A stretch of DNA of 64,000 nt. Source: Dehalococcoidia bacterium. Lineage in GTDB: Bacteria > Chloroflexota > Dehalococcoidia > CAUJGQ01. The translations under genes and the position numbers were made by a program. Positions within the stretch are counted from its first letter, which is position 1, and each line of letters begins with the position of its first letter. Of this stretch, positions 3,065 to 42,390 are shown one piece after another. The notes below the pieces were generated by a model that worked only from the letters and a program-made list of their open reading frames with translations, searched no databases and was not told the DNA's origin. The stretch covers positions 4,779 to 68,778 of the forward strand of contig DATGEL010000003.1 of NCBI GenBank assembly GCA_035310145.1, read 5' to 3'.

Positions 3065-3943
3065 GTGATGACCGACTGCACAAGCGACACGGCCGGACCG
3101 CGAACGGAGGCGGTCGAGGCGATCAACACGCTGATGGACGCCGGCCTGCGACCGCGCGACTGGGACAGCCTCAGTGTCAGCCGGCTGGAGAGCACGGCCG
3201 ATGGCTGCCCAGCTTCGGCCGAAGCGAACCTGCTGCTCTATTACCGCTTTAGCGACGCCGGCCAGCCCGCGCTGGCCGCTGCGCATCTCAATCGGCTGCT
3301 GGACGTGGGCCACCGGCTCGCGCCGTCGCTGCAGGCCGAGCTGGCCTTGACCGCCGCCTATTTCGCCGCGCGCCATGTCGGCGACGCGGGTGCGGCACGG
3401 GACTGGCTCGAACGGGCGCCGGCCGACGGCGCGCATCCGGCGCTGCGCGCCCAGGCCGAGGCAGCAGTGCTGCTGGCGGAAGGCCGCTGCTCTGCTGCCC
3501 AGGACGCGGCGGAATCGGGGCTGCTCAGCCTGCGCGACGGCCTGCTCGGCGGTCTGAGCGCCGTACAGGGCGATGCCCTGCGTGAGCTGGTCAACGCTGC
3601 AGTAGCGGCGAAGCCCGCGCCACCACCTGCGCCCCTCGCCCCGACGTCGTCGACGCCGCCGGCGCCGTCGCATCAACCGACGGCTGCTGAACCACCCAAC
3701 CGCGGCGGCGGCGGCGCGACGGTGCCGGCCGATGCCGGTGCCACCGGGCCGACGATCGGCCTCGGCGTCACGATCGCGATCGTGGCCGCGGTGACCCTGG
3801 TGGTTGCGGTGATGCCGCTGCCGCGCTGCGGGTCAGCGCGCCTGACCGGGCGGCAAGTCGATCCGGCGTTCACCCAATCCGACGGGTCCGGCCAAATCGT
3901 GATCGTCGGTCCCGACGGTCAGACGGTGCAGATCGACCGCTGA
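3065..3943 (+). CDS. Hypothetical protein with a Pro-rich linker and a C-terminal transmembrane anchor.
   Basis: Protein-like composition, whereas the overlapping minus-strand ORFs are poly-Arg junk. It has a C-terminal hydrophobic helix GLGVTIAIVAAVTLVVAV, and GGAG lies 12 nt upstream of the ATG. Confidence 0.4.
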   Translation: MMTDCTSDTAGPRTEAVEAINTLMDAGLRPRDWDSLSVSRLESTADGCPASAEANLLLYYRFSDAGQPALAAAHLNRLLDVGHRLAPSLQAELALTAAYFAARHVGDAGAARDWLERAPADGAHPALRAQAEAAVLLAEGRCSAAQDAAESGLLSLRDGLLGGLSAVQGDALRELVNAAVAAKPAPPPAPLAPTSSTPPAPSHQPTAAEPPNRGGGGATVPADAGATGPTIGLGVTIAIVAAVTLVVAVMPLPRCGSARLTGRQVDPAFTQSDGSGQIVIVGPDGQTVQIDR

Positions 3944-12402: not shown

Positions 12403-13212
12403 ATGACCAGCGCCGCGAAAGCCTACAGCGACATTCTCTACGAAAAGCACGACGACGGCGTGCTCGTCCTGACGCTTAACCGGCCCGAACGCATGAACGC
12501 GCTCGGCGGCGAGCTTGCGTCCGAGTTGATGGACGCCTTCGCCCGCGCCCGCCTCGATGACGACGTGCGCGCCGTGGTGCTTACCGGCGCCGGTCGCGGC
12601 TTCTGCGCGGGCGCCGATCTCTCGCGCGGCACGCCGAAGAGCGGGGACACCGCCCGCCACGCACGCTTGGACCGCATGGGCCGCGCTGGCCCGTTCATGC
12701 TCGCGCTGCGCGACATTGACAAGCCGACGATCGGCGCGATCAACGGCGTGGCCGCCGGCGCCGGCATCGGCATCGCCACCTCGCTCGACATCCGCATCGC
12801 CTCCAGCGAAGCCCGCTTCACCACGGTCTTCATCAAGCGCGGCCTGGGGCCGGACTTCGGCTCGTCCTACTTCATTCCGAGGCTGGTCGGCAGCGCGCGG
12901 GCCTACGAGCTGTTCTTCACCGGCCGCTTCGTCACGGCGGAGGAGGCGCTGCAGATCGGCCTCGTCAATCGCGTGGTCGAGCCATCGAGGCTGATGGACG
13001 AGGCGCTGGCGCTGGCGCGCGAGCTGGCCGCCGGCCCGCCCATGGCGATGACCTTCACGCGGCGCGCCCTGCAGCGCAGCCTGCAAAGTACGCTGGAACA
13101 GCAGCTTGAGTTCGAGTGGACCAACCAGATCGTGGCGCTCGACTCCGAGGACGCGCGCGAGGGCGTGCAGGCCTGGGCGGAGAAGCGCACGCCGCACTTC
13201 GAAGGGCGCTGA
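12403..13212 (+). CDS. Enoyl-CoA hydratase/isomerase (crotonase) family protein.
   Basis: VLTGAGRGFCAGADL oxyanion-hole motif, with an AAGGAG RBS. Confidence 0.85.
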   Translation: MTSAAKAYSDILYEKHDDGVLVLTLNRPERMNALGGELASELMDAFARARLDDDVRAVVLTGAGRGFCAGADLSRGTPKSGDTARHARLDRMGRAGPFMLALRDIDKPTIGAINGVAAGAGIGIATSLDIRIASSEARFTTVFIKRGLGPDFGSSYFIPRLVGSARAYELFFTGRFVTAEEALQIGLVNRVVEPSRLMDEALALARELAAGPPMAMTFTRRALQRSLQSTLEQQLEFEWTNQIVALDSEDAREGVQAWAEKRTPHFEGR

Positions 13213-13247
13213 GCCCCCGACGACTCCATGCGACACGGAGGCCCGCC

Positions 13248-15926
13248 ATGCCCTACGACGCGATCGTGGTCGGCGCCGGCTCGGCCGGCTCGGTGATCGC
13301 CGCCCGGCTCAGCGAAGATCCGCGGCGCTCCGTGCTGCTGCTGGAGGCCGGGCCGGACTACGCCGATCTCGCCAGCACACCGCCGGACCTGCTCAACGGC
13401 CTCTGGAACTCGACCCGGCCGCACGACTGGCGCTTCCGCGCCCATCATTCCCAGACGGGCCGCCCGCACCTGATGCCGCGCGGCCGCGTCACCGGCGGCT
13501 CCTCGGCGGTGAACACGACGATCGCCCTGCGCGGCGTGCCGGAGGACTACGACGCGTGGGCGGCGCTCGGCAACGGCGAGTGGTCCTGGGAGAGCGTCCT
13601 GCCGTTCTTCCGCGCCATGGAGCACGACGTCGACTTCGCCGACGACTTTCACGGCCAGTCCGGCCCGATCCCGGTGCGGCGTTACTCCTATACGCGCAAT
13701 GAGCTGGTCAACTGGCAGCGCGCCTTCGTGGACGCCTGCCGGCACCTCGGCCTGTCCAGCGCCGCCGACAACAACGACCCCAACGCCACTGGCTGTGGCC
13801 CGCACCCGATGAACCGCGAGGGCAGCCTGCGCATCTCGACCGCGATCGCCTACCTGGCGCCGGCGCGCGGCCGGCCGAACCTGACCGTGCGCGGCGACAC
13901 GCACGTGCGCCGCGTGCTGCTGGATGGCTCGCGGGCGGTGGGCGTCGAGATCGAGACCGATGGGGCGCCGGAATCGATCTTCGCGGACCTGATCGTGCTC
14001 TGCGCCGGCGCACTGCAAAGCCCGGCGATCCTGATCCGCTCCGGCATCGGCGGGCGCGAGGCACTTGGCCGGCTCGGGCTGCCTGTCGCCGTGGAGCTGG
14101 CGGGCGTCTGCGAACACCTCTGCGACCACCCGGTGGCCGGCGTGATCTACGAACCACGGCCGGGGGTCTGCCGCACGGACGTGCCCTCGGTGCAGGTGAC
14201 GTACCGCTATACGGCGGCAGGCAGCGATCAGCGCAACGACATGCAGGTGATGCCGGTTTCCTTCTACCAGACCGCAGACGGGCCGGTGTATTCGATCGGC
14301 GTCGTCGTGGAGCAGGTGCGCGGCCACGGCCGGCTCGTGGTCGAGTCGCTGAACCCGCGTCTGCAGCCGCGCATCGAGTCGCACTTTCTGGAAGACGAGG
14401 AAGACCTGCGGCGCATGGTTGACGGCATGCGCCTGGCGCTGCGCCTGGGCGAGACGGAGCCGCTGCGCGCGCTGCATACCGGCATCCGCCGGCCGCGCGC
14501 GCAGCACCTGGAAAGCGATGCGTCGTTGGCGGCCTGGGTGCGGCGGGTGGCCGACTCCGGCTTTCATCCCTGCGGCACGGCGAAGATGGGGCCGGCGAGC
14601 GACCCCATGGCCGTAGTCGATCAGCACGGCCGCGTATACGGCGTGCGGGGGCTGCTGGTGGCCGACGCCTCGATCATGCCGACGGTGCCGCGCGCCAACA
14701 CCAACTTCACCTCGATCATGATCGGCGAGCGCATCGGCGCCTGGCTGCGCGACGGCATGGCGGGCACCGACGTCGCCGCTGCTCCGGCGCACGCCATTGC
14801 GTCCAAAGACCTGCAGGCCGTCGCACCGAACGGCCGGCCTATGCCGGAACACCCGGTCGCGCCGCGCCCCACACGCAGCCCGTTCGCCGTTGCCAGGGAT
14901 CGCGGCGCAGATTATCTCGAATCCCGCCAGCGCGAGGACGGCCTCTTGGGCGACGAATCCGGCGGCCTGGGCGGCTTCTACAAGGCGACCTACGCCCTGG
15001 CAGCGGCCGGTCGCACGCGGGCCGCCGGGCGGATGGCCGGCTGGCTGCGCAGGAACGCAGCCACGCCGGAGGGCGACTTCGTCGGCGACTGGGAACGCGG
15101 CGGTCTTGCCGATCTGTATCCGTACGGCAACGCCTGGATCGCGGCCGGGCTGATTCGCGCCGGCGCCATCGGCCTCGGCGGCCGTGGGCTGGACTTCCTC
15201 GCGACGATGCAAGACCCGGAGTCGGGCGGCCTGCGCACACGCATCGACCGCAACGGCCCGGAGGTGCGGCAGGAGGTGATGTCCAGCGCAATGGCAGGCG
15301 TCGCGGCGCTGATCGGCGGGCGGCTGGAGATGGCGGACGGTGTCGCCCGCTTCCTGCGCACCGTGCTGGCGGCGCAGCCGCGGCCGGCGGAGATGCTTTG
15401 CCACGTCTATACCCCCGCGCAAGGCGTGATCACCGAGTTTCCGGAGGAGAAGGCGCGCGAGTTCGCCGTGATCGCAAACCGGCCGCTGCAGGCGTACTTC
15501 ATGTACGGCATCGGCGCCGCCTTCATGACCGGCTACGCACAGGCTCGCGGCGACGGCCGCGCCCTCGACGACGCGGCCGCCTTCCTGCTGCCCGCCCTCA
15601 ACGCGACGGACGCGATGTACGAGACGGCGCAGGTGGGCAAGGTCGCCTGGGGCGCGGCGCTGCTGGCCGGCGCGACGGGAGACAGGACGCACCGCGATCT
15701 CGCCCTCCGCGCCGCCGGGGCGCTGCTGGCGCAGCAGAACCCGGACGGCAGCTGGGACAACACCGGCGGCTACACGACGGAAGGCTCTCGCGACGAGGTC
15801 ACGGCCGAGTTCGTGGCGATCATGGACTGGGTCGAGCAGGGGCTGGCCGGCGCCTCGCTCGACGGATTCAGGCCCCCGACACCGGCCGCGCTGCTGGCGG
15901 GCGCGCCGGCGAGCGGGCGGCGATGA
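13248..15926 (+). CDS. Fusion protein (892 aa): an N-terminal GMC-family FAD oxidoreductase of about 560 aa, joined to a C-terminal prenyltransferase/squalene-oxidase-repeat alpha/alpha-toroid domain of about 330 aa.
   Basis: MPYDAIVVGAGSAGSV Rossmann motif and the GMC C-terminal signature ADASIMPTVPRANTNFTSIMIGERIG. Then three Qx(D/E)GS(W)-type repeats (YLESRQREDGLLGDESGG, FLATMQDPESGGLRT, LLAQQNPDGSWDNTGG). GGAGG RBS. The reading frame is continuous. Confidence 0.75.
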   Translation: MPYDAIVVGAGSAGSVIAARLSEDPRRSVLLLEAGPDYADLASTPPDLLNGLWNSTRPHDWRFRAHHSQTGRPHLMPRGRVTGGSSAVNTTIALRGVPEDYDAWAALGNGEWSWESVLPFFRAMEHDVDFADDFHGQSGPIPVRRYSYTRNELVNWQRAFVDACRHLGLSSAADNNDPNATGCGPHPMNREGSLRISTAIAYLAPARGRPNLTVRGDTHVRRVLLDGSRAVGVEIETDGAPESIFADLIVLCAGALQSPAILIRSGIGGREALGRLGLPVAVELAGVCEHLCDHPVAGVIYEPRPGVCRTDVPSVQVTYRYTAAGSDQRNDMQVMPVSFYQTADGPVYSIGVVVEQVRGHGRLVVESLNPRLQPRIESHFLEDEEDLRRMVDGMRLALRLGETEPLRALHTGIRRPRAQHLESDASLAAWVRRVADSGFHPCGTAKMGPASDPMAVVDQHGRVYGVRGLLVADASIMPTVPRANTNFTSIMIGERIGAWLRDGMAGTDVAAAPAHAIASKDLQAVAPNGRPMPEHPVAPRPTRSPFAVARDRGADYLESRQREDGLLGDESGGLGGFYKATYALAAAGRTRAAGRMAGWLRRNAATPEGDFVGDWERGGLADLYPYGNAWIAAGLIRAGAIGLGGRGLDFLATMQDPESGGLRTRIDRNGPEVRQEVMSSAMAGVAALIGGRLEMADGVARFLRTVLAAQPRPAEMLCHVYTPAQGVITEFPEEKAREFAVIANRPLQAYFMYGIGAAFMTGYAQARGDGRALDDAAAFLLPALNATDAMYETAQVGKVAWGAALLAGATGDRTHRDLALRAAGALLAQQNPDGSWDNTGGYTTEGSRDEVTAEFVAIMDWVEQGLAGASLDGFRPPTPAALLAGAPASGRR

Positions 15927-24539: not shown

Positions 24540-24753
24540 GCGACCAGCGCGCTCGCAGCACGGCGGATAGCGCTCTTCCCCTCCCATCGGTAGACAGCTC
24601 GCGAAGCGCGCGGGGAGAGTGAAGGCGCGCGCACAGGAGCGGGCCTGGCGAGCGGAACACTCCCTCGCTTTCTGGCGGGCCAGCCGCACCTGCGCGACAA
24701 TGGTTGTGCGGCCGCTCTTGGCCGCGCGAGCATCTCCTGCCGGAGCTACATGC

Positions 24754-27045
24754 ATGCCGGAGACGCACCGGCCCCAGTCCGAGCCGCCGCCGGTCGTCGA
24801 TGATCTCTCGATCGGCCCCTTCCGCACGGCGGAAGCGGAGCCAATGGCGATCGAGGACATCCGTGACGCGCTTGTCGTGCGCGAGAACGGCACCTTTCTG
24901 CTCACGGACAAGTACGGCAACGTTCCTGCCGGCAACGAGTCCGGCTTCGGGCTCTATCGCGGCGACACCCGCTTCCTCTCGACCTACGAGTTCGTCTGCA
25001 CAAACGCGCCGCCGGTGCTGCTGCTCTCCGAAGCCGGGCTGGGCTACGCCTGCGAGCAGGTCCTGACCAATCCACGCATGACCAGCAGCGACGGTCACGA
25101 ACTCCCGCGCGAGACGATCGAGCTGCGTCGCCGGCGCACGATTGACATCGAGCTGCATGAAACGCTGCAAATCACCAACTTCAACGCCGTCCCCGTCACG
25201 CTGGAGTACCGCTACCGCTTCGACGCCGACTTCGCGGATATCTTTGAGGTGCGAGGCCAGAAGCGCAGGCACAGCGGCTTGCGACTGCCCGCCGTGGCGA
25301 CCGAGAACGGCTTCTGCCTGGCCTATCACACCCTCGACGGCCGCGAGCTGCGCACGCACGTGTCCTTCGAACAGCAGCCAGCTCGGATTCAAGACCGTGT
25401 GGCCGTCTTCCGGCTCGCGCTTGGCCCGCGCGAGACGCAGGCGCTGTCGTTGCACGTGCGCACCGAGGATCTGGCGCGGGCGCCGGAGCCGGATCCGCCG
25501 GCGCCGTATCTCCGGCCGCGCGTTGCTCTCGCGGAACAGTACCGCCGCTGGAAGGACGCGTGCACGCGTTTCTTCACCGGCAATGAGATCTTCAACGCGG
25601 TGCTCGACCAGTCGCTGCACGACCTGCGCATGCTCTGGAACTTCGACGGCGACGGCGAAGATGGCTATCTCTCGGCCGGCACGCCGTGGTTCGATACGCT
25701 CTTCGGCCGCGACAGCCTGATCACCTCGCTAGAGCTGCTGGCGTTCAATCCACGCCTGGCGCGCAGCACCCTGCTGCGGCTGGCGGAGCACCAGGGCCAG
25801 GTCAACGACGAGTGGCGCGACGAAGAGCCCGGCAAGATCTTGCACGAGCTGCGCACTGGCGAGCTGTCGCGTCTCGGCGAAATCCCCTTCGCCCGCTATT
25901 ACGGCAGCATCGACTCCACCCCGCTCTTCTTGCTGCTCGCGGCCGAATACTGGCGCTGGACGGCCGACACCGCGCTGCTGCAGCGGCTCAAACCCAACCT
26001 GCGCGCGGCACTCGACTGGGTGTGGCGCTCGGGTGATCGGGATGGCGACGGCTACATCGAGTACGAGCGGCACTCAGAAAACGGCCTGCTGAACCAGGGC
26101 TGGAAAGACTCGGGTGACGCGATCGTCCACAGCGACGGACGCCTGGCGCGGCCGCCGATCGCACTGGTCGAGGTGCAGGCGTATCTCTACGCCGCGTTGC
26201 TCGGGCTGGCGCCGGCGGCCGAGGCGCTGCGCGACAGCCGCTGGGCGGGCGAGCTGCGCCGCGCCGCGTTCGCGCTGCGCGCCCGCTTCAACCGCGACTT
26301 CTGGCTCGAAGACGAGGGCTGCTACGCCCTGGCGCTGGACGGCGAGAAGCAGCCCGTGCGCTCGATCGCCTCCAACGCCGGCCATGCGTTGTTCGCGGGC
26401 ATTGCCACGCCGCCCCGCGCCGCCGCGGTCGCCGAGCGCCTGTTGCAGCGTGAGATGTTCAGCGGCTGGGGCGTGCGCACGCTCAGCGCCGCCTCCGCGC
26501 GTTTCAACCCGATGGGCTATCACCTTGGCTCGATCTGGCCGCACGACAACGCGCTGATCGCCCTCGGCCTCAAGCGCTACGGCCAGGAAACCGCGCTCTC
26601 GGCGCTGGCGACCGCGATTTACGATACGGCGCGGACGATGGACCATTTCCGCCTGCCGGAGCTGTTCTGCGGCCTGCCGCGCTCGCCCGAGGGTCAGCCG
26701 GTGCCGTATCCCGTCGCCTGCCGGCCACAGGCCTGGGCCGCCGGCGCCGTGCCGGCGATCCTCACCGCACTGCTTGGTCTCAGCCCCGACGCGCAGCGCA
26801 GCGAGTTGCTGATTGTGCAGCCGCGCCTGCCCTACTGGCTGAACAGCGTGCAGGTGCGCGGGCTGCGGGTGGGCAGCGGCAGCGTTGATTTGCTGTTCGA
26901 ACTGAAACAGCGGCGCACCCAGGTAACGGTGTTGAACGTGAGCGGCGCGTTGCGTGTCACCGTGGTGCCGCGCTGGCCCCGCAATGAGCCGGCGTCTCCG
27001 GGCCGCGCCGAGAACGACACCCCGAAAGGGAGGCGGCGTGACTGA
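24754..27045 (+). CDS. Amylo-alpha-1,6-glucosidase / glycogen-debranching-enzyme-like protein (GDE N-terminal domain plus a GH133-type six-hairpin catalytic domain).
   Basis: FLLTDKYGNVPAGNESGFGLYRGDTRFLS N-domain; WFDTLFGRDSLIT; C-terminal GWKDSGDAIVH and HLGSIWPHDNA motifs. Confidence 0.8.
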   Translation: MPETHRPQSEPPPVVDDLSIGPFRTAEAEPMAIEDIRDALVVRENGTFLLTDKYGNVPAGNESGFGLYRGDTRFLSTYEFVCTNAPPVLLLSEAGLGYACEQVLTNPRMTSSDGHELPRETIELRRRRTIDIELHETLQITNFNAVPVTLEYRYRFDADFADIFEVRGQKRRHSGLRLPAVATENGFCLAYHTLDGRELRTHVSFEQQPARIQDRVAVFRLALGPRETQALSLHVRTEDLARAPEPDPPAPYLRPRVALAEQYRRWKDACTRFFTGNEIFNAVLDQSLHDLRMLWNFDGDGEDGYLSAGTPWFDTLFGRDSLITSLELLAFNPRLARSTLLRLAEHQGQVNDEWRDEEPGKILHELRTGELSRLGEIPFARYYGSIDSTPLFLLLAAEYWRWTADTALLQRLKPNLRAALDWVWRSGDRDGDGYIEYERHSENGLLNQGWKDSGDAIVHSDGRLARPPIALVEVQAYLYAALLGLAPAAEALRDSRWAGELRRAAFALRARFNRDFWLEDEGCYALALDGEKQPVRSIASNAGHALFAGIATPPRAAAVAERLLQREMFSGWGVRTLSAASARFNPMGYHLGSIWPHDNALIALGLKRYGQETALSALATAIYDTARTMDHFRLPELFCGLPRSPEGQPVPYPVACRPQAWAAGAVPAILTALLGLSPDAQRSELLIVQPRLPYWLNSVQVRGLRVGSGSVDLLFELKQRRTQVTVLNVSGALRVTVVPRWPRNEPASPGRAENDTPKGRRRD

Positions 27046-32886: not shown

Positions 32887-32990
32887 CCGCTCTCCCGACA
32901 CGTGCAGCGTAGTACGGTACAGTCTGAGCGAATGCGCTGCCGGATACCAGCACGAACCGCGCGGCAGAACGGATGGAGGTAAGCGGCAGG

Positions 32991-33503
32991 ATGCGCGATT
33001 CCATGGATGCGCCGCCCGATGGGACGGCCGGCCCGGAGGCGGTCTGGGCCGGCGGCAAGCCCGTTTCGGCGGAGTGGCTGGCGCGCTGGCGGGCCGAGCC
33101 GCTGCACAAGTTCCTCGACCTCGCGCTGGAAGCGCAGCGCGACGGCTACTGCCGCATCGTGCTGCGCATGGGTCCACAGACGCGCGGCGGCGTGGGCGGC
33201 TCGGTGCACGGCGGCATCATCGCCACGCTGGTCGACATCGTCACGATCGGCGCCGTCGCTTCGGCGATCGAGCCGCACGACGTGATGAACGGCACGGCTG
33301 AGCTGAACATCAGCTATCTGCGCCCGGCGTTGGGGGCGCAGGTGGTGGCCGAAGGCCGTGTGCTCAAGAAAGGGCGCAGCCTCGCGGTGGTGGACGCCGA
33401 GTGCTCGGACGGCGCCGGCCGGCTGTTCGCCAAGGGCCGCGCCCAGTACGCGCTCCGTCAGCGCGAGCCCCCACCCCCCGGTTCATCCGGTGGCCCCCGA
33501 TAA
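32991..33503 (+). CDS. PaaI-family hotdog-fold thioesterase.
   Basis: GSVHGGIIATLVD motif. Alternative starts at 32973 and 33003. Confidence 0.7.
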   Translation: MRDSMDAPPDGTAGPEAVWAGGKPVSAEWLARWRAEPLHKFLDLALEAQRDGYCRIVLRMGPQTRGGVGGSVHGGIIATLVDIVTIGAVASAIEPHDVMNGTAELNISYLRPALGAQVVAEGRVLKKGRSLAVVDAECSDGAGRLFAKGRAQYALRQREPPPPGSSGGPR

Positions 33504-33717: not shown

Positions 33718-34371
33718 TCAGCCCGCCGCGCAGAGGCGCTGGTAGAGCTGCAGCGTGATCTGTACGTCCCCGGCGGCGCGGTGCCGCGTAACGTTGTCCA
33801 GGGAGATGCCGAGGGCCATGCAGCAGCGGTCGAGGGCATAGCGCAGTCCGGGAGCCGGCCGGTCCAGCGTTTCGCAGGCGAAGGTCCAATGGTCCTGGCC
33901 GGGGCGCGGCTTCAGGGCGAGCCTCTGCGCCTTGTACAACGCCGCCGTGTCGCGGTAGCGGCCGCGCGACGGCGCCACGAGACCGGCGCGGCGGCAGGCC
34001 GACTCCAGAAAGAAGGCGTCGAAGCGCACGACATTGTGCCCGACCAGCGGCAAGTCGCCGCAGTCGGCGAAGAACTGGCCGAGCACCACAGCCAGGGCGA
34101 GCGCCTCCCGTGCCAACAGCTCATCCGAGATGCCCGTGAGCGCCTGCACCGCGCCCGGCAGCGGCACCGGAATCTGTGCGAGCAGGGAGCGCAGCGGCCC
34201 GGGCGTGCCGTCGCGCACCACGCACCAGCCGATCTCGATCACGTGATCGGTTGCGGGGCGCAGGCCCGTGGTCTCGAGGTCGAACACCACGTAGTTGAGC
34301 GCGTCGCCGTCCCGCTGAGTGGCGGGCGTGGACGCGATCGTCCCGTGCATCTCGCTGAGCCTGGCTGACAT
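33718..34371 (-). CDS. DnaQ-like DEDDh 3'-5' exonuclease domain protein.
   Basis: Exo I VVFDLETTGL, Exo II HNVVRFDAFFL, Exo III HRAAGDVQIT. GGAGGG RBS before ATG 34371. Confidence 0.7.
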   Translation of the reverse strand: MSARLSEMHGTIASTPATQRDGDALNYVVFDLETTGLRPATDHVIEIGWCVVRDGTPGPLRSLLAQIPVPLPGAVQALTGISDELLAREALALAVVLGQFFADCGDLPLVGHNVVRFDAFFLESACRRAGLVAPSRGRYRDTAALYKAQRLALKPRPGQDHWTFACETLDRPAPGLRYALDRCCMALGISLDNVTRHRAAGDVQITLQLYQRLCAAG

Positions 34372-34441
34372 GGCGCCCTCCGCCGGCCGACCACCCGGTT
34401 TCCTGACTGTTATAGCATAACACCCTGTGCGGTGCCAGCCG

Positions 34442-36841
34442 CTAATGCAGCGCTCCACCGGCCGACAGCCGCTCCAGCGTCTCCGACGGAATGCCAAGCA
34501 GCCCGCCGAACACGGCCGCGTTGTCCTCGCCGAGGCGTGGCGCCGGACGGCGCACGGGCAGCGGGTCCGGGCCAAAGCGGTAGGGCGCGCTGTACACAGG
34601 CAGCGTTGCCCAGCCGGGATGCTCGACCGGATGGAAGAAGCGGCGGGCCCGCAGGTGTTCATCTTCGAGGAGATCGCCGGCGTGCTGAGAGCGCATTGCC
34701 GGCACGCCCGCCGCCTGCAGCCGCGCCGCGAGTTCCGCCGCGTCCTGGTCCGCCGTCCATGCTGCGATCCGCAGGTCGATCGCTTCACGGCGGTCCAGTC
34801 TGCCCGCGACGCTGGCGAGCATCGCAGCTTGCGACCACTCCGGCGCGTCCATCTCCTGCGCCAATGCCTGCCACTCTGTGTCGGATGTGACAGCGACGGC
34901 GAGCCAGCGGCCTTCGCGACATGGGAAGACGTTGTGGGGCGCCCAGCGGCGGTCGGCGTTGCCGAGGCGAGGCGGGTCCACGCCGTGTTCCGCCAGCAGA
35001 GCGTATCCCTCGGTCAGCGCGAACAGCAGTCCCTCGGCCTCCGAGAGGTCGATGTGCTGGCCGCGGCCGCTGAGGCCGCGATGGCGCAGCGCCGCCAGCA
35101 CGGCCACGGCGCCGAGCAGGCCGCCGATCGGGTCCGCGTAGGGCAGGCCGAGCGCTTCCGGCGGCCCGGCGGCGTACCCGGTCAACTCGGCCAGGCCGGA
35201 GAAGGCTTCCATCGTGTAGCCGTACGCGACATAATCCCGCTCCGGGCCGGTCTGGCCGAAGCCGGAGAGGCTGATCATGACCAGCTCGGGTCGCAGGGCG
35301 CGTAACGTCTCGTAGCCGAGACCCAGCCGCTCCATCACGCCCGGCGCGTAGTTTTCCACGACGACATCGCTGACGCTCACCAGCTCGCGCGCCAGCGCCA
35401 GTCCCTCGGCGCTGCGCAGGTTGAGCGTGATGCCGGCCTTGCCGCGGTTGAAGGCGGCGAAGCGCAGGCTCTTGTCGGGGTCGATCGGCGCGCCGCGCGG
35501 GAACGGCCCCACGCCGCGAGCAGAGTCGATCCGCTCGCGCGTCTCAATCTTGATCACCTCGGCGCCGAGGTCGGCAAGCTGCAGGGCGCAGTGCGGCCCC
35601 GCCCATGCCCAGGAGAAATCGGCGACGCGAATGCCTGTCAAGGGCGCAGGTTTTAGGGCGTAGGGCGTAGGAGGCGTGCCGGATTCAGCCGAGGCCGCGG
35701 GCTGTGCCTCGCTGTTACCCCTCTCGGCGAGGACTTCGGCCGTGTGCCGGCCGAGGCGCGGCGCCGGCCGTGTCAGCCGCCAGGCCGTCTCGCCGCTTCG
35801 GAAAGGGGCGCCGGGCAGCAGGCGCGAGCCGCCGTCCGGCCAGGGCACGGCGACGAACGCCTGGCGCGCGACAAATTGCGGCTGGCTCTGCGCTTGCGAG
35901 GGGCGGTTGACCGGGGCGAAGGGCAGGCGCAGGCGCTGGCCGGCATGATAGACCTCCTGTTTGGAGTGGCCAGCCGCCCACGCTGCCGCGCGAGCCTCGA
36001 TCTCCTCGCGGCTCGCCAGCCGTGCCCGGCGATCCGGAACCATCACCAGCGCCTCGGCCCCGATCAGCTCGCCCAGCTTCTGCCAATGCTGCTCGGTCAC
36101 GGCCATCAGCCGCGCCAGGCCGTCCGCGGCTGGGGTGAAGCCGGCGAAGACGATTGTCGGCGAGAAGCGATCGCGCACTTTGCCGGTGATCACGACTTCC
36201 GGCAGGCTGGAGTGCAGGATCGAGGCCACGCACTCCTGCGTCGAAACGTCGATCGCGGCGCCGGCCTGCATGGACGGCTCACCTCGCTCGCGGCCGAACA
36301 GCGCCGCGACCAGTGCGACCGCCGCGTGCAGCGCCGCCAGCACTTCGGCCTGGCGCGGAGCGGGACGCAGCGGCGGCTTCGCCGGGTCGTCCACCCAGTC
36401 CGGCACGATCGCGGCCAGCCCGCCGGCGTGGATGCCGATCAGGTCTTCGCCTTTCCACAGCCGCCGCGGCCCGCTTTGGCCGAAGGGCGAAAGCGAGACC
36501 ACGATCAGGCCTGGCCGCAGGCGCTGCAGCCGCTCGACGCCGAACCCGGCTACGTCGAGAAAGCCGGGAGGGTGGTTCTCGATCAGTGCGTCGGCCCCGG
36601 CGATAAGCCGCTCGATCTGTGCGCGGCCCGCCACCGTCGTCGCATCGGCGACCACGCTGCGCTTGTTGAAGTTGAGCGCGGGAAAGAGCGGATCGCCGCG
36701 CAGCCAGTCGCCGGCAGGAGGTTCCAGCTTCACCACGTCGGCGCCGAGGTCTCCGAGCAGCCGGGCGCAGAGCGGCGCGGCGAAGCCTTCGCCCCACTCG
36801 ACGATGCGCAGCTCGCGCAGGGCGCCCTCCGATTCAGGCAT
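34442..36841 (-). CDS. Tandem-fused CoA-transferase family III (CaiB/BaiF) protein, with two complete CoA_transf_3 domains in one 799-aa chain.
   Basis: Domain 1 starts LRIVEWGEGFAAPLCARLLGDLGADVVKLEPP; domain 2 starts LTGIRVADFSWAWAGPHCALQLADLGAEVIKIE. Each is followed by the characteristic GxGxxxE/D core. Confidence 0.75.
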   Translation of the reverse strand: MPESEGALRELRIVEWGEGFAAPLCARLLGDLGADVVKLEPPAGDWLRGDPLFPALNFNKRSVVADATTVAGRAQIERLIAGADALIENHPPGFLDVAGFGVERLQRLRPGLIVVSLSPFGQSGPRRLWKGEDLIGIHAGGLAAIVPDWVDDPAKPPLRPAPRQAEVLAALHAAVALVAALFGRERGEPSMQAGAAIDVSTQECVASILHSSLPEVVITGKVRDRFSPTIVFAGFTPAADGLARLMAVTEQHWQKLGELIGAEALVMVPDRRARLASREEIEARAAAWAAGHSKQEVYHAGQRLRLPFAPVNRPSQAQSQPQFVARQAFVAVPWPDGGSRLLPGAPFRSGETAWRLTRPAPRLGRHTAEVLAERGNSEAQPAASAESGTPPTPYALKPAPLTGIRVADFSWAWAGPHCALQLADLGAEVIKIETRERIDSARGVGPFPRGAPIDPDKSLRFAAFNRGKAGITLNLRSAEGLALARELVSVSDVVVENYAPGVMERLGLGYETLRALRPELVMISLSGFGQTGPERDYVAYGYTMEAFSGLAELTGYAAGPPEALGLPYADPIGGLLGAVAVLAALRHRGLSGRGQHIDLSEAEGLLFALTEGYALLAEHGVDPPRLGNADRRWAPHNVFPCREGRWLAVAVTSDTEWQALAQEMDAPEWSQAAMLASVAGRLDRREAIDLRIAAWTADQDAAELAARLQAAGVPAMRSQHAGDLLEDEHLRARRFFHPVEHPGWATLPVYSAPYRFGPDPLPVRRPAPRLGEDNAAVFGGLLGIPSETLERLSAGGALH

Positions 36842-37011
36842 GGGTGCGGCTCGGCGGCGCGGAGACGTGGGTGAGCACGGTGTCTTGCTGGCCTCAAGGT
36901 GTGGTGCGGCGCCGCCGCCATCGTAGCGCGGCGCGGCCGCCCACGCCCCTGCGGATTGCCGGCTGTGACACAATGCGAGGAACCAGGCAGCGCGGGGACG
37001 GAGGCGCAGCG

Positions 37012-38049
37012 ATGGCGAGTCAAGGCAAGCGGCCGATCATTGCGATCACGATCGGCGATCCGGCCGGCATCGGCCCCGAGGTCACGGCGGGCGCCCTGGC
37101 GCACGGCCGGCTCGACGAGGTCTGCCGGCCGCTGCTGCTGGGCGACGCCGGCGTGCTGCGGCAAGCGGCGCGCTGCATGGGTGTCGAGCTCAAGCTGGTG
37201 CCCGTCGCCTCGCCTGCCGACGCAACGTTCGCGCCGGACGAGGTTTCCATGCTCGACCTGGCGAACGTCGATCTTGGCGTCCTGCGCATGGGCGAGATCC
37301 AGGGCGCCTGCGGGCAGGCTGCCTACGGCTATATTCGCAAGAGCATCGAGCTGGCGCTGGCGGGCGAAGTCGACGCCGTTGCCACCGCGCCGATCAACAA
37401 GGAGGCGCTGCGCGCCGGCGGCGTGCCCTACCTCGACCATACCGCGATGTACGCCGACCTCACGCACAGCCTCAACCCGATGACGATGTTCACCGTGGGA
37501 ACGCTGCGCATCTTTTTCGCCACGCGCCATGTCTCGCTGCGCACCGCAGTGGATCAGATCGCCCAAGACCTCGTGCTCGAGAACCTGGTCAACGCCGACG
37601 AGGCGCTGAAGTCGTACGGCCTTACGGCGCCGCGCATCGCTCTGGCCGCGCTGAACCCGCACAACGGCGAAGGCGGCCTCTTCGGCGACACGGAGTCACG
37701 CGAGCTGCGCCCCGCCGTCGAGGCGGCGCGGGCGCGTGGCATTAACGCCAGCGGGCCATATCCGGCGGACTCGGTCTTTCACATGGCGATGCAAGGCGGC
37801 GCCGACGCGGTGCTCTCGCTCTTCCATGACCAGGGCCACATCGCCGCCAAGAGCATCGACTTCGAGAAGACGATCGCGATCACGACCGGCCTGCCCTTCG
37901 TGCGCGCCAGCGTGGACCACGGCACCGCCTTCGACATCGCCGGCACGGGCAAGGCGAGCTGGGTGAGCATGGCCGAGGCCGTGCGCGTCGGCGCCGAGTA
38001 CGCCCGCCTCTTCCGCGAGACCAGGGAGGGGCAGGCAGCCCAGACGTGA
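37012..38049 (+). CDS. PdxA-family NAD-dependent 4-hydroxythreonine-4-phosphate / 4-phospho-sugar-acid dehydrogenase.
   Basis: IAITIGDPAGIGPEV, TAPINKEAL, HDQGHIAAK, DHGTAFDIAG motifs. GGAGG RBS. Confidence 0.8.
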   Translation: MASQGKRPIIAITIGDPAGIGPEVTAGALAHGRLDEVCRPLLLGDAGVLRQAARCMGVELKLVPVASPADATFAPDEVSMLDLANVDLGVLRMGEIQGACGQAAYGYIRKSIELALAGEVDAVATAPINKEALRAGGVPYLDHTAMYADLTHSLNPMTMFTVGTLRIFFATRHVSLRTAVDQIAQDLVLENLVNADEALKSYGLTAPRIALAALNPHNGEGGLFGDTESRELRPAVEAARARGINASGPYPADSVFHMAMQGGADAVLSLFHDQGHIAAKSIDFEKTIAITTGLPFVRASVDHGTAFDIAGTGKASWVSMAEAVRVGAEYARLFRETREGQAAQT

Positions 38050-38099: not shown

Positions 38100-39263
38100 T
38101 CAGCGCAACGAGCCGCTGGCCATCAGCCGGTCGAGGTCTTCGAGCATGGCGCGCGGGCCGGGCTGCTGGAAGTGCTCCCGCGCCGGGGCCAGCAGGGCGA
38201 TCAACGCCTCCGAGACGCCGGCCTTCAGGTCCATCGGGTGCAGGGCGCCGGTGCTGTACGCTTCGGCCAATTCCTCGAAGCTTGTGAAGGTGACCGAGCC
38301 GCCGTTTTCCGGCGTGCGCGGAATGTGCAGCGCCGCGCCCGGTTCGTTGAAGATCAGGTAGCGCGCCCAGTCGAGGATCGGATTGAAGGCGACTTCGTTC
38401 GGCGGGCAGAACGCCTTGCGGATCTTCTGGCGAATCTCGTCTTCGCTGTCGTGGATGAAGATGGCCGAGGACGGATCGGACTTGCTCATCTTCATCGAGG
38501 CGGCGAAGTCGTGCACGTTGTCCGTCGGCGGCGGCCAGACGGCCGGCTTGCGCAGGCCCATCAGCAGGTGATGGTGGATGGCGATCGGCTTGATCTGCTG
38601 GCCCGCGGCGTTGTGAATCGCGTTGATCTTCATCTGCAGCGCCGTGTCGCGCGCGATCACGTGCGCCTTGCGCTGGTCCAGGCCTGCGTGGGCGAGCTGG
38701 ACGTGCATGGCGAAGATGTCGGCAACCTGCAACGCGGGATAGAGCAGCTTGGCGAAGTCTCCGGATTCGCCCTCTTTGCGACCGAGAATGGTGATGCTGC
38801 GCTGCATGCGCCCCAGCGTGGTGTTCTTGGAGACGTCGATCACCGTGGCCCAGTAATCGTCGTTGCAGTGGTACAGCTCCGTGCCGAGGATGAACTTCAA
38901 CCTGCCCGGGTCGTGCCTGAAGCACTTGAGCGAGGCGATGAAGCCCTCTTTGAAGTAGTTGACGGCCACACGCTGGATCACTTCGCGGTCGCCGCCCAGC
39001 TTGTCGTTGATCCAGCTGTGCCAGTCGGCCAGAAAAACCGAGCAGTCGATGCCCGCGTCCATGAAGTCGCGGACCTTGGACATGCTCATCAGGCCGGAGC
39101 CCAGATGCATCTTGCCGGAGATCTCGAAGCCGATGTAGTGCTGGATCGGCTCGCCCGTGGCCAGCAGCCTGCGCAGGTCATCGACGGTGATGATCTCTTC
39201 CACGTTGCGGCCGATCAGGGCCAGCCGCTCCTCCACCGTGTTTGCAGTGTCCGTCTCACTCAC
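38100..39263 (-). CDS. tyrS: Tyrosyl-tRNA synthetase, archaeal/eukaryal type.
   Basis: HIGH-region YIGFEISGKMHLGS, KMSKS motif, and C-terminal ALHPMDLKAGVSEALIALLAP. From memory, this closely parallels Methanocaldococcus TyrRS (YIGFEPSGKIHLGH ... ELHPMDLKNAVAEELIKILEP). GTG start. Confidence 0.8.
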   Translation of the reverse strand: MSETDTANTVEERLALIGRNVEEIITVDDLRRLLATGEPIQHYIGFEISGKMHLGSGLMSMSKVRDFMDAGIDCSVFLADWHSWINDKLGGDREVIQRVAVNYFKEGFIASLKCFRHDPGRLKFILGTELYHCNDDYWATVIDVSKNTTLGRMQRSITILGRKEGESGDFAKLLYPALQVADIFAMHVQLAHAGLDQRKAHVIARDTALQMKINAIHNAAGQQIKPIAIHHHLLMGLRKPAVWPPPTDNVHDFAASMKMSKSDPSSAIFIHDSEDEIRQKIRKAFCPPNEVAFNPILDWARYLIFNEPGAALHIPRTPENGGSVTFTSFEELAEAYSTGALHPMDLKAGVSEALIALLAPAREHFQQPGPRAMLEDLDRLMASGSLR

Positions 39264-39344: not shown

Positions 39345-40562
39345 TCAGATCGCGCCTTGCTCGCGCAGCTCCGCGATCTGCCCGGCGCCGAGGCCAAGCA
39401 ATTCGTGCAGCACCTCGTCGGTGTGCTGGCCCAGCAGCGGCGGCGCCGTGCGCGGGCCGACGTGCGAGTCCGAGAGCGCGATCGGTGAGCCGACCATGGG
39501 CAGCTCACCGATCGTGGGGTGCGGCAACAACGTGACCACGCCCAGCGCCTGCACCTGCGGGTCGGCGAAGGCCTGCGCCACGGTGTTGATGGCGCCGGAC
39601 GGCACGCCATGCGCGTTGAGCAACTCCACCCACTCCGCCGCCGTCTTCTGTGCGATGAGCGATTGCACCATCGCGATCAGCGCCTTGCGGTTGGCGACGC
39701 GATCCGCGTTCGTGCGGAAGCGCGGGTCGTCGGGCAGGTCGGGGCGGCCGGCCAGCTCGCAAAAGGTCTTGAACTGGCGCGGGTTGGCGCAGGCCAGGGA
39801 GATCGGCTGGTCGCTGGCGTGGAAGACCTGGTAGGGCACGATGTTGGGGTGGGCGTTGCCGAAGCGGCCGGCGTCCTTGCCGCTGACGAGATAATTTTGA
39901 CCCACGTTCGCCAGCCAGGCCATGGCGGACTGCAGCAAGGAGGCGTCCACGCGCTCGCCCCGGCCCGTCTCTGTGCGGCGGTAAAGCGCGGCCAGGACGC
40001 CGTTCAGCATAAACAGGGCCGCGGTGATGTCCACGATGGCGATACCGACCTTCATCGGCTCGCCCGCCGGCTCGCCGGTGACGCCCATGATGCCCGCCAG
40101 CCCCTGAACGACGAAATCGTAGCCGGCGTACTCGGCGTACGGCCCCGTCGTACCGAAGCCGGTGAGCGAGGCGTGAATCAGGCCGGGGTTCGCTTGCCAG
40201 AGCACATCGTCACCGAGGTCCATGCGCTCCAGGGTGCCGGTCCTGAAGTTCTCGATCAGGATGTCGGACTTGCGCACGAGCTCGAGCGCCAGCTCGCGCG
40301 CGGCCGCGTGCTTGAGATTGAGCGTGATGCTGCGCTTGTTGCGGTTGACCGAGAGGTAGTAGGCGCTTTCACCGCCGGCGAAGGGGGGACCCCAGCCGCG
40401 CGTCTCGTCGCCCTCGCCTGGCTGTTCGACCTTGATTACGTCGGCGCCCATGTCGCCCAGTGTCATCGCGGCGTACGGCCCGGCCAGCACACGCGAGAGA
40501 TCGAGCACGCGTACGCCGGCGAGCGGGCCGGGTCCTTGAGCTTCCCGATTGGCTTCGTTCAT
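39345..40562 (-). CDS. CoA-transferase family III (CaiB/BaiF) protein.
   Basis: VRVLDLSRVLAGPYAAMTLGDMGADVIKVE N-terminus. Confidence 0.8.
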   Translation of the reverse strand: MNEANREAQGPGPLAGVRVLDLSRVLAGPYAAMTLGDMGADVIKVEQPGEGDETRGWGPPFAGGESAYYLSVNRNKRSITLNLKHAAARELALELVRKSDILIENFRTGTLERMDLGDDVLWQANPGLIHASLTGFGTTGPYAEYAGYDFVVQGLAGIMGVTGEPAGEPMKVGIAIVDITAALFMLNGVLAALYRRTETGRGERVDASLLQSAMAWLANVGQNYLVSGKDAGRFGNAHPNIVPYQVFHASDQPISLACANPRQFKTFCELAGRPDLPDDPRFRTNADRVANRKALIAMVQSLIAQKTAAEWVELLNAHGVPSGAINTVAQAFADPQVQALGVVTLLPHPTIGELPMVGSPIALSDSHVGPRTAPPLLGQHTDEVLHELLGLGAGQIAELREQGAI

Positions 40563-40581: not shown

Positions 40582-41358
40582 TCAGTCGAGATAGAGGCCG
40601 CCGGCCGGGTGCAGCATCTGGCCGGTGAAGTAGCTGGCCTCGTCGGAGCAGAGGAAGAGCGCCGTGGCGGCGATCTCCTCCGGCTCGCCCATGCGATGCA
40701 TCGGCACGGCGCGTAGGATCTGCTGCAGCCGCTCCTCGCTCTGGTGCATCGGCTGGGTCATCGGCGTGTCGATGTAGCCGGGGCCGATCGCGTTGATGCG
40801 GATGTTTTGCGCCGCAAGCTCCAGCGCCATGACTTTGGTGAGCATCCAGACGCCGGCCTTGGCGATGCAGTAGTGGCCGCCGCCGGCCAGCGGCAGCCGC
40901 GCCGCTCCCGAGCTGATCGTGACGATGGCGCCGGGGCGGCCGGCGTTCAGCATCTCGCGCACGGCCGCGCGGCAGGTGAGCAGGACACCGCGCAGATTCA
41001 CGTCCAGCATGCCGTCGAAGGCTTCGAGCGGCATGTTCCAGAGCGGCTCGCCGCCTTGCTGGCCGGGCGCCCGCGCGATGCCCGCCGCGGCCACGACGCA
41101 ATCCAGGGCGCCGTACGTCTCGACGCAGCGGTGGCTGACGCCGTTGACGATCGCCTCACTCGTCACGTCGGCCTGTGCGGCGAACGCCTGCCCGCCGGCC
41201 GCCTCGATGCGGCGCACCGTCTCTGCCGCGCCCTCCAGCGAGCGATCGATGACGCAGACGCGCGCGCCTTCCGTGGCGAAGCGCTCGGCGCTCGCTCGGC
41301 CGATGCCCGAGCCGCCTCCCGTGATCAACGCGACCTTGCCTTCCAGCCGTCCCGGCAT
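40582..41358 (-). CDS. Short-chain dehydrogenase/reductase (SDR).
   Basis: TGGGSGIG, NAIG, and the Y-x3-K region (HYCIAK). AAGGAG RBS before ATG 41358. Only 19 nt separate it from the downstream CoA-transferase. Confidence 0.8.
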   Translation of the reverse strand: MPGRLEGKVALITGGGSGIGRASAERFATEGARVCVIDRSLEGAAETVRRIEAAGGQAFAAQADVTSEAIVNGVSHRCVETYGALDCVVAAAGIARAPGQQGGEPLWNMPLEAFDGMLDVNLRGVLLTCRAAVREMLNAGRPGAIVTISSGAARLPLAGGGHYCIAKAGVWMLTKVMALELAAQNIRINAIGPGYIDTPMTQPMHQSEERLQQILRAVPMHRMGEPEEIAATALFLCSDEASYFTGQMLHPAGGLYLD

Positions 41359-41463
41359 CTGCTGCTCCTTCGCTGTCCGAACCTCGCCACCAGCATACTG
41401 GCCGGACGTGTAGCATGGGCACTGCCGCCCGCAGCCGGGCGAGCCCTGCAACGGGTGCTTCAC

Positions 41464-42390
41464 ATGCGCTTCGGCATCGTGCTCCCGCACTTTCGCGCTG
41501 TGGCCGGCGCCGCCGCCATCCGCGACGTGGCGCAGGCCGCCGATTCGCTGGGCTTCGATTCGATCTGGATCACCGATCGCGCCGCCATTCCGCGCGGCGA
41601 GGTGAACCGCCGCTTCGGTCCGGCCTTCTACGATCCGCTGGTCACGCTCGGTTACGTCGCGGCCTGCACCACGCGCGTGCGGCTGGGCGCCACGGTGTTC
41701 GTGCTGCCGTTTCGTCATCCGGTGCTGATGGCCCGCGCCATCGCTTCGCTCGACCAGCTCTGCGGCGGACGGCTGGACGTCGGCGTGGGCACGGGCTGGA
41801 TGCGCGAGGAGTTCGACGCGATCGGCGTGCCGTTTGAGCAGCGCGGCGCCCTCACCGACGAATATCTTGACGCGATGATCGCCCTCTGGAGTGCGCCCGT
41901 CGCCTCGTTCGCCGGACCGACGGTGCGCTTCGAGAATCTGCACGCTGAGCCGCTGCCCGTGCAGCAGCCGCACCCGCCGATCTGGGTGGGCGGCCGCACG
42001 CCGCCCGCCTACCGGCGCGCGATCAAATACGGCCAGGTGTGGCACGCCTCGCCCGTCGGCCTCTCCGAGCTGTTGCCCGCCATCGCGGGGCTGCGCGAGA
42101 CGGCGAAGCGGCTTGGCCGCGACCCGGAGACTATCGCCCTGACGACGCGGGCGCCGCTGTACTTCGAACTGACGTCGCATCGGTTCGGGGAAAGTGAGCC
42201 GCCGGAGATGCCGATCGGCACGCCGGACGCGGTGCTCGCCACGCTGCGCCGCTACCAGGCAGCCGGCTTCTCCGAAATCGTCTTCGACACGTTCTTCGCC
42301 GGCTTTCCCGAGCTGGAGGGCGCCACGCCGGACGGGATTCTGCAGACGATGTCGCAGTTCACGCGGGTGGTGCGGCCCGCCTTCCCCTGA
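41464..42390 (+). CDS. Luciferase-like monooxygenase (LLM) class flavin/F420-dependent oxidoreductase.
   Basis: MRFGIVLP..., FDSIWITD, and VGVGTGWMREEF, typical of LLM TIM-barrel enzymes. Confidence 0.7.
   Translation: MRFGIVLPHFRAVAGAAAIRDVAQAADSLGFDSIWITDRAAIPRGEVNRRFGPAFYDPLVTLGYVAACTTRVRLGATVFVLPFRHPVLMARAIASLDQLCGGRLDVGVGTGWMREEFDAIGVPFEQRGALTDEYLDAMIALWSAPVASFAGPTVRFENLHAEPLPVQQPHPPIWVGGRTPPAYRRAIKYGQVWHASPVGLSELLPAIAGLRETAKRLGRDPETIALTTRAPLYFELTSHRFGESEPPEMPIGTPDAVLATLRRYQAAGFSEIVFDTFFAGFPELEGATPDGILQTMSQFTRVVRPAFP

Follow-up and report, generated by a model that had tools for sequence, protein, structure and literature searches.

In a 64,000-nucleotide stretch of a Dehalococcoidia bacterium genome (contig DATGEL010000003.1, positions 4,779 to 68,778; referred to here as the window) is a gene for a 799-residue protein in which two family III coenzyme A (CoA)-transferase domains are joined in one chain. 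The gene is real, and is a divergent member of a widespread, experimentally uncharacterised fused form. Its product is probably a single-chain version of a heteromeric family III CoA-transferase of the type of BbsEF (succinyl-CoA:(R)-benzylsuccinate CoA-transferase), with one canonical active site. The N-terminal half falls in the clade of BbsE and the C-terminal half in the clade of BbsF; the halves are paralogous and non-equivalent. Family III enzymes form an interlocked dimer and use an Asp nucleophile, the reaction passing through an acyl-aspartyl anhydride and then a beta-aspartyl-CoA thioester (PMC9813914). The parts of the gene (aa, amino acids), all on the minus strand, are as follows.

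34442..36841, minus strand: fused family III CoA-transferase coding sequence, 799 aa plus TAG (open reading frame (ORF) listing, two Pfam CoA_transf_3 matches, continuous G+C content at third codon positions (GC3)).
35720..36841, minus strand: N-terminal half, aa 1–374, E-type (BbsE-like) CoA_transf_3 module with a degenerate nucleophile site.
35645..35719, minus strand: interdomain linker, aa 375–399, GNSEAQPAASAESGTPPTPYALKPA, of low predicted confidence and variable across the family.
34442..35644, minus strand: C-terminal half, aa 400–799 plus stop, F-type (BbsF-like) catalytic CoA_transf_3 module.
36344..36346, minus strand: codon of Glu166, at the catalytic-Asp position of the N-half by half-versus-half alignment and matching the Glu of BbsE.
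35132..35134, minus strand: codon of Asp570, the predicted catalytic nucleophile, from its alignment to D178 of 9fn0_B and column conservation.

The ORF listing and translation give a single unbroken frame of 2400 nt from ATG to TAG. The maximal ORF reaches a TTG at 36973 (843 aa), and the ATG at 36841 is favoured as the start because homologues begin about 10 residues ahead of the first conserved motif. Against Pfam PF02515 (CoA_transf_3, cutoff 23.3) the protein scores 611.9 bits in total (E 5.4e-184) over two stretches, the better of which, aa 401–774, spans profile positions 1–366 of 366. The N-half aligns over nearly the full length of single-domain chains (aa 19–379 with residues 15–394 of 9fn0_A; aa 8–373 with 4ed9). 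The initial annotation, which had read one polypeptide with two complete CoA_transf_3 domains and a junction at about 35640, is borne out here, the second domain beginning at aa 401 (coordinate 35641). The pairwise alignment of the halves that it called for gives 31% identity over 393 columns (E 2e-33). Joining the halves is a Pro/Ala/Ser linker of about 25 residues, within the range of the family, where linkers of 21–104 aa are rich in A, P, S, R and G. Across the junction, GC3 in the coding frame is 0.74–0.94 and continuous, while the other two frames carry stops at aa 356, 375, 385, 396 and 401, giving no sign of a hidden frameshift there; nor was a start codon or Shine-Dalgarno context found in the linker. 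The frameshift or stop named beforehand as grounds for reading two adjacent genes is without support.

The two halves resemble different subunits of the same enzyme. Among solved structures BbsEF (9fn0, 9fol, 9fun) is the closest to the protein, and the best PDB match of the C-half is its BbsF chain (9fn0_B; 227.6 bits, E 2.4e-66), with Foldseek matches to BbsF chains at a template modelling (TM) score of 0.94–0.95 and a root-mean-square deviation (r.m.s.d.) of 1.7–1.8 Å. For the N-half the best match is the BbsE chain (9fn0_A), at 133 bits versus 48.6 bits to chain B. Hidden Markov models (HMMs) of the N-half and C-half, built from 62 fused homologues, draw the same distinction: BbsE scores 349 bits on the N-half HMM versus 199 on the C-half HMM, BbsF 258 versus 446, and the C-half of the protein itself 334 versus 535. 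The two HMMs give much the same score for two presumed homodimers used as references, a formyl-CoA transferase and the CaiB/BaiF protein 4ed9. In a neighbour-joining tree of 164 domains, built without support values, the smallest clade with all fused N-halves holds 35 of these, 23 separate N-type proteins and BbsE (59 leaves), and the smallest with all fused C-halves holds 35 of those, 23 separate C-type proteins and BbsF (59 leaves). Generic single-domain enzymes, the Brucella formyl-CoA transferase (10uh) and 4ed9 lie outside both. By HMM scores and exclusive clades, E-type and F-type are two distinct paralogous modules, which makes the protein a covalent E+F heterodimer and not a doubled homodimer. 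The idea of family III enzymes as obligate homodimers gives way here to a best structural and sequence match that is itself heteromeric, and the reading of the halves as equivalent copies to their separate E-type and F-type membership. The N-halves also diverge faster than the C-halves (mean identity 30.9% versus 36.0%, the C-halves being more similar in 91% of pairs).

This asymmetry extends to the nucleophile. Asp570 aligns residue for residue with D178 of BbsF (9fn0_B), and the title of PDB entry 9fol names a 'D178-CoA adduct'. Its column is Asp in 120 of 121 fused homologues and in all 59 F-clade sequences. The corresponding residue of the N-half is Glu166, which aligns with Asp570 in the half-versus-half comparison and with the Glu of the BbsE motif YRMAEAY. 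Its column holds D in 44, E in 42 and other residues in 35 of the 121 fused homologues; in the E-clade (n = 59) the counts are E 18, D 11, W 6, S 6, H 4, Q 4 and others (E 31%, D 19%, the rest non-carboxylate), with a similar spread in fused and split members. Both residues are placed as expected for the nucleophile, at the start of a long helix (Asp570 opens helix 569–591, Glu166 helix 164–185). The catalytic Asp of family III, which the initial annotation suggested looking for in both halves, is thus present in the C-half and absent from the N-half, and strict conservation of the nucleophile is confined to the F-type module (59/59 in the F-clade; BbsE has Glu).

AlphaFold2, run on the whole single chain with a 62-sequence alignment, returns a model with a mean predicted local distance difference test (pLDDT) score of 94.3 and a predicted TM score (pTM) of 0.95. 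Low confidence is limited to the linker (block means 52–67, with residues 383–385 below 50). The pTM indicates that the relative placement of the two halves is confident, and an intramolecular E/F body fits it. Taken singly, the halves can each be superposed on a whole ring-shaped subunit (TM 0.87–0.95), and the two rings may be mutually threaded. The earlier idea of a covalently fused pseudo-dimer survives in part: the model predicts a tight intramolecular pseudo-dimer, made of E and F modules and not of two like copies.

In the arrangement that we favour, an E-type N module and an F-type C module would be tethered by the flexible linker of about 25 residues and would most probably pair within one chain, giving the same interlocked body of two rings as separate E and F subunits. 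Asp570 would attack the donor acyl-CoA to give an acyl-aspartyl anhydride; a beta-aspartyl-CoA thioester would form next and CoA would then pass to the acceptor carboxylate. The E-type half, with Glu166, would mainly supply the partner ring and a share of the active-site wall, and its symmetry-related site is degenerate without necessarily being inert. We infer that the threading is intramolecular, that there is one active site and that CoA passes between molecules.

Comparison with known enzymes places the protein near BbsEF in architecture and apart from it in likely substrate. BbsE and BbsF are separate polypeptides, unlike the single chain found here, which carries them in E–F order at 28–34% identity. 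The genes of the bbs operon (BbsG acyl-CoA dehydrogenase, BbsH hydratase, BbsCD, BbsAB) were not found near the fused gene. Identity at this level makes the same substrate unlikely, and an orthologue of the benzylsuccinate enzyme was rejected on both grounds. Homodimeric family III enzymes (Frc/YfdW, CaiB, YfdE, human SUGCT) share the fold of one half (TM 0.83–0.93), the Asp position and the aspartyl anhydride and aspartyl-CoA thioester mechanism; unlike in the protein described here, their two chains are identical, as are their two active sites. SptAB and SmtAB (succinyl-CoA:malate) are two-subunit enzymes that use succinyl-CoA as donor. SptAB (succinyl-CoA:phthalate) is named in the literature as a family III enzyme. 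By analogy with BbsEF and the nearest transferases, and with low confidence, we would guess a donor of succinyl-CoA or another dicarboxyl-CoA and an organic acid as acceptor. None of seven curated NCBIfam equivalog models is reached, among them succinate-glutarate, succinyl-CoA:mesaconate, formyl-CoA, oxalate and carnitine CoA-transferases and mesaconyl-CoA isomerase; the best is succinate-glutarate CoA-transferase, at 334.8 bits versus a cutoff of 750. A Pfam scan of 117 neighbouring ORFs in homologue loci, where ORF calling was crude and sensitivity lowered, found generic acyl-CoA metabolism only and no fixed partner (ECH 7, luciferase-like 5, thiamine pyrophosphate enzymes 3–4, SDR 3, acyl-CoA dehydrogenase 3). 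Among five homologue contigs inspected, one close homologue has a CitMHS/Na-sulfate-symporter-type carboxylate transporter immediately upstream, and the distant members lie in heterogeneous contexts.

The fused form is common. In a collection of 5.8 billion proteins, the best 120 matches are all fusions of 727–927 aa, nearly all covering about 97–100% of the protein; the sequence itself was not found there. They include ~800-aa proteins named 'CaiB/BaiF CoA transferase family proteins', uncharacterised, with the same E–F fusion over about 99% of the length and the same C-half Asp. Identity is highest, at 60%, for three metagenomic sequences (P0001–P0003) and 35–40% for the others; to proteins of species-representative genomes it is at most 41%. 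Sources comprise Ca. Binataceae, Dehalococcoidia, Acidimicrobiia, Chloroflexota, the SAR324 cluster, Pseudomonadales and Ca. Poriferisodalis. In 86 loci (80 from species-representative genomes and six metagenomic contigs) there are 37 N–C fused ORFs, including homologues of about 780 aa in Mycobacterium spp. (L017, L070, L080). Rv1866 of M. tuberculosis may be another; nothing on such an architecture turned up for it in open-access text. The same loci hold two fusions in the reverse, C–N order, both in metagenome-assembled genomes of Dehalococcoidia (L041 5947–8658, L042 611–3307). The architecture is thus fairly ordinary among bacterial genomes, although no paper describing or characterising a fused, two-domain family III enzyme was found in open-access text.

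Fused genes coexist with split ones. In about 16 of the 86 loci the N-type and C-type genes are separate neighbours, in N,C or C,N order. Genuine two-gene versions are seen at five split loci, each gene having its own Shine-Dalgarno sequence and start codon: the boundary reads TAG, AAGGAGG, ATG in L023, AGGAG and then TAA directly adjoining ATG in L029, and TGA, AAGGAGG, ATG in L055 (cultured Paenibacillus periandrae), with overlapping GTGA and ATGA in L045 and L064. The reverse-order fusions cluster with split pairs that share their C,N arrangement (L045, L050), a sign that they arose by a fusion event of their own. Given separate adjacent genes and reverse-order fusions, fusion and fission have occurred repeatedly; parsimony on the unsupported neighbour-joining tree gives a rough figure of at least 10–13 changes between the fused and split states. 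Two loci (L009, L019) hold two fused paralogues each, and tandem sets of split E/F genes occur in L033 (order N,C,C,N) and L050, which points to lineage-specific expansion in Dehalococcoidia. The contig L002, that of the closest homologue, carries a stand-alone E-type CoA_transf_3 gene (810–2018) 4 kb from its fused gene; this E-type gene has Asp in the nucleophile column, and no F-type gene adjoins it.

Two other origins of the gene have little to recommend them. An artefact might be imagined in which neighbouring E-type and F-type genes, such as exist in other genomes, were merged through the loss of a stop codon or through a frameshift made in sequencing or assembly, but its probability is negligible: GC3 runs on in one frame past stops in the others, the linker lacks a start or Shine-Dalgarno sequence and is like the variable A/P/S linkers seen in other fused proteins, and the fusion recurs in the two closest homologues (60% identity, from independent metagenomes) and in over 100 further sequences. 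Frame continuity, linker character and this recurrence in over 100 independent genomes led us to reject it. It is scarcely more credible that a homodimeric gene was recently duplicated in place to give a pseudo-homodimer with two equivalent sites. Both halves are complete CoA_transf_3 domains with 31% identity, as such a history would have it, yet the C-half scores 227 bits to BbsF versus 116 to the N-half, each half is nearer a different BbsEF subunit, and the halves sit in two old clades, distinct from one another, in which separately encoded subunits are found as well. The tree, the BbsE/BbsF similarity and the Asp kept in one half only rule against duplication. That the protein is not an intermolecular transferase at all, but a family III racemase (MCR-like) or intramolecular CoA mutase (Mct-like), is very unlikely. 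Such enzymes belong to family III and appear among the matches, at about 95 bits (MCR) and 93 bits (Mct), against 227 for BbsF, 204 for formyl-CoA transferase and 150 for SUGCT; the 2-methylfumaryl-CoA isomerase model gives 117 bits versus a cutoff of 725.

Several points weigh against the single-site, single-chain arrangement itself. Glu166 retains a carboxylate, the three closest homologues also have Glu there, and the E-clade keeps most residues conserved in active family members, including G33, A34, E40, R48, K60 and D84, so a second working or ligand-binding site in the N-half is possible. The view of BbsE as non-catalytic draws on PDB titles and sequence. AlphaFold2 was given one chain, and a prediction of this kind cannot reveal pairing between chains. 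The gene neighbourhoods (five contigs and 117 ORFs) point to no substrate, and the best equivalog score, 335 bits of the 750 needed, offers none. The weightier of the resulting alternatives, though still unlikely, is a chain with two working sites, either bifunctional, with Glu166 as a nucleophile in the manner of the Glu of family I, or allosteric, with a regulatory CoA or acyl-CoA site. An acidic residue in the Glu166 column of 71% of the 121 fused proteins and 49% of the E-clade, a Glu kept throughout the subclade of the protein and the retention of other family-conserved residues would suit it; the W, S, H, Q, A, L or F found in that column in many members and the faster evolution of the N-half speak against it. 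The D169E mutant of Frc (crystal entry 1vgr in the PDB) is reportedly inactive, which we also count against it. Somewhat less likely again is a domain-swapped dimer or oligomer, with the same chemistry, in which each N-half would interlock with the C-half of a different chain. It is suggested by BbsEF crystals, which have two copies of each subunit (chains A–D), and by linkers as short as 21 residues in some members; single-chain AlphaFold2 is blind to such pairing. Against it, a pTM of 0.95 describes a sterically satisfied intramolecular arrangement, and a linker length that is not conserved (21–104 aa) is what a simple tether would show.

Around the fused gene the window holds the following features.

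32973–33503, plus strand: hotdog-fold (4HBT/PaaI-like) thioesterase, 1 kb from the fused gene on the opposite strand.
33718–34380, minus strand: DEDD/RNase_T-family 3'-5' exonuclease, 61 bp downstream of the fused gene.
36844–38049, plus strand, real start at about 37012: PdxA-family decarboxylating dehydrogenase paralogue, divergent from the fused gene.
38100–39263, minus strand: tyrosyl-tRNA synthetase (TyrRS), matched by the PRK08560 tyrosine-tRNA ligase model.
39345–40562, minus strand: generic single-domain family III CoA-transferase (CoA_transf_3).
40582–41364, minus strand: SDR adjoining the single-domain CoA-transferase.
41446–42390, plus strand: TIGR03619 F420-dependent luciferase-like monooxygenase (LLM) oxidoreductase (244 bits, cutoff 167), divergent from the SDR and CoA-transferase.
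13116–15926, plus strand: 936-aa ORF with GMC-oxidoreductase domains at aa 47–537 only.

The second, single-domain transferase reported by the initial annotation is present, with the SDR and TyrRS on its flanks as described, though by the direction of transcription it lies upstream, not downstream, of the fused gene. It has the Asp and, at 312 bits on the N-half HMM and 377 bits on the C-half HMM, is neither E-type nor F-type. Together with its neighbours it may make up a small cluster of acyl-CoA genes; the LLM oxidoreductase suggests an F420-using lineage, and the hotdog thioesterase is possibly tied to acyl-CoA metabolism. No terminator is predicted between the fused gene and the exonuclease gene, and this gene order is kept in the only two close homologue contigs (exonuclease at 3839–4540 in L001 and 8525–9232 in L002), a conserved pairing with no obvious functional logic. 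The PdxA-family protein passes the TIGR00557 pdxA model (302.2 bits versus 290.35) and falls just below the 470-bit cutoff of the PdxA equivalog model NF002992 (458 bits); on these scores its standing as a true PdxA is uncertain. TyrRS scores 404 bits on PRK08560 (cutoff 220), which we take to be an archaeal/eukaryote-type model, and 93.6 bits on TIGR00234 tyrS, under its cutoff of 113.8; it lies in a local G+C dip (0.61–0.63 versus about 0.70) and may have been horizontally acquired. The long C-terminal extension of the 936-aa GMC ORF is unexplained or an over-called ORF. A GFO/IDH/MocA oxidoreductase gene is another neighbour of the fused gene, and a second ORF of about 808 aa in the window (24619–27045), considered as another fusion, proved to be a glycogen-debranching-type hydrolase. 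No Rfam families or tRNAs were found in the window, and a promoter and terminator scan gave nothing informative.

Specialists would not be surprised by the fusion itself, heteromer-subunit fusions being common and this architecture abundant in databases under generic names. Its value lies in the corrected E+F reading with one conserved Asp, in the repeated fusion and fission, and in the question of a self-threaded single chain. Proteins of about 800 aa annotated as 'CaiB/BaiF family' would be better named fused E+F (BbsEF-type) enzymes with one canonical site than doubled enzymes. For enzymology, fusion fixes a 1:1 stoichiometry and offers a handy single-gene construct for the role of the non-catalytic E-type subunit; for the study of folding, two threaded rings made by one chain would, if true, be an unusual topology. 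There is an outside chance that one chain folds as two mutually threaded rings and that its Glu166 site also binds CoA or acyl-CoA, in a catalytic or regulatory capacity. Were both true, its repeated fusion and fission would make the family a natural test set for the folding of threaded topologies and for why heteromeric family III enzymes retain a pseudo-active subunit.

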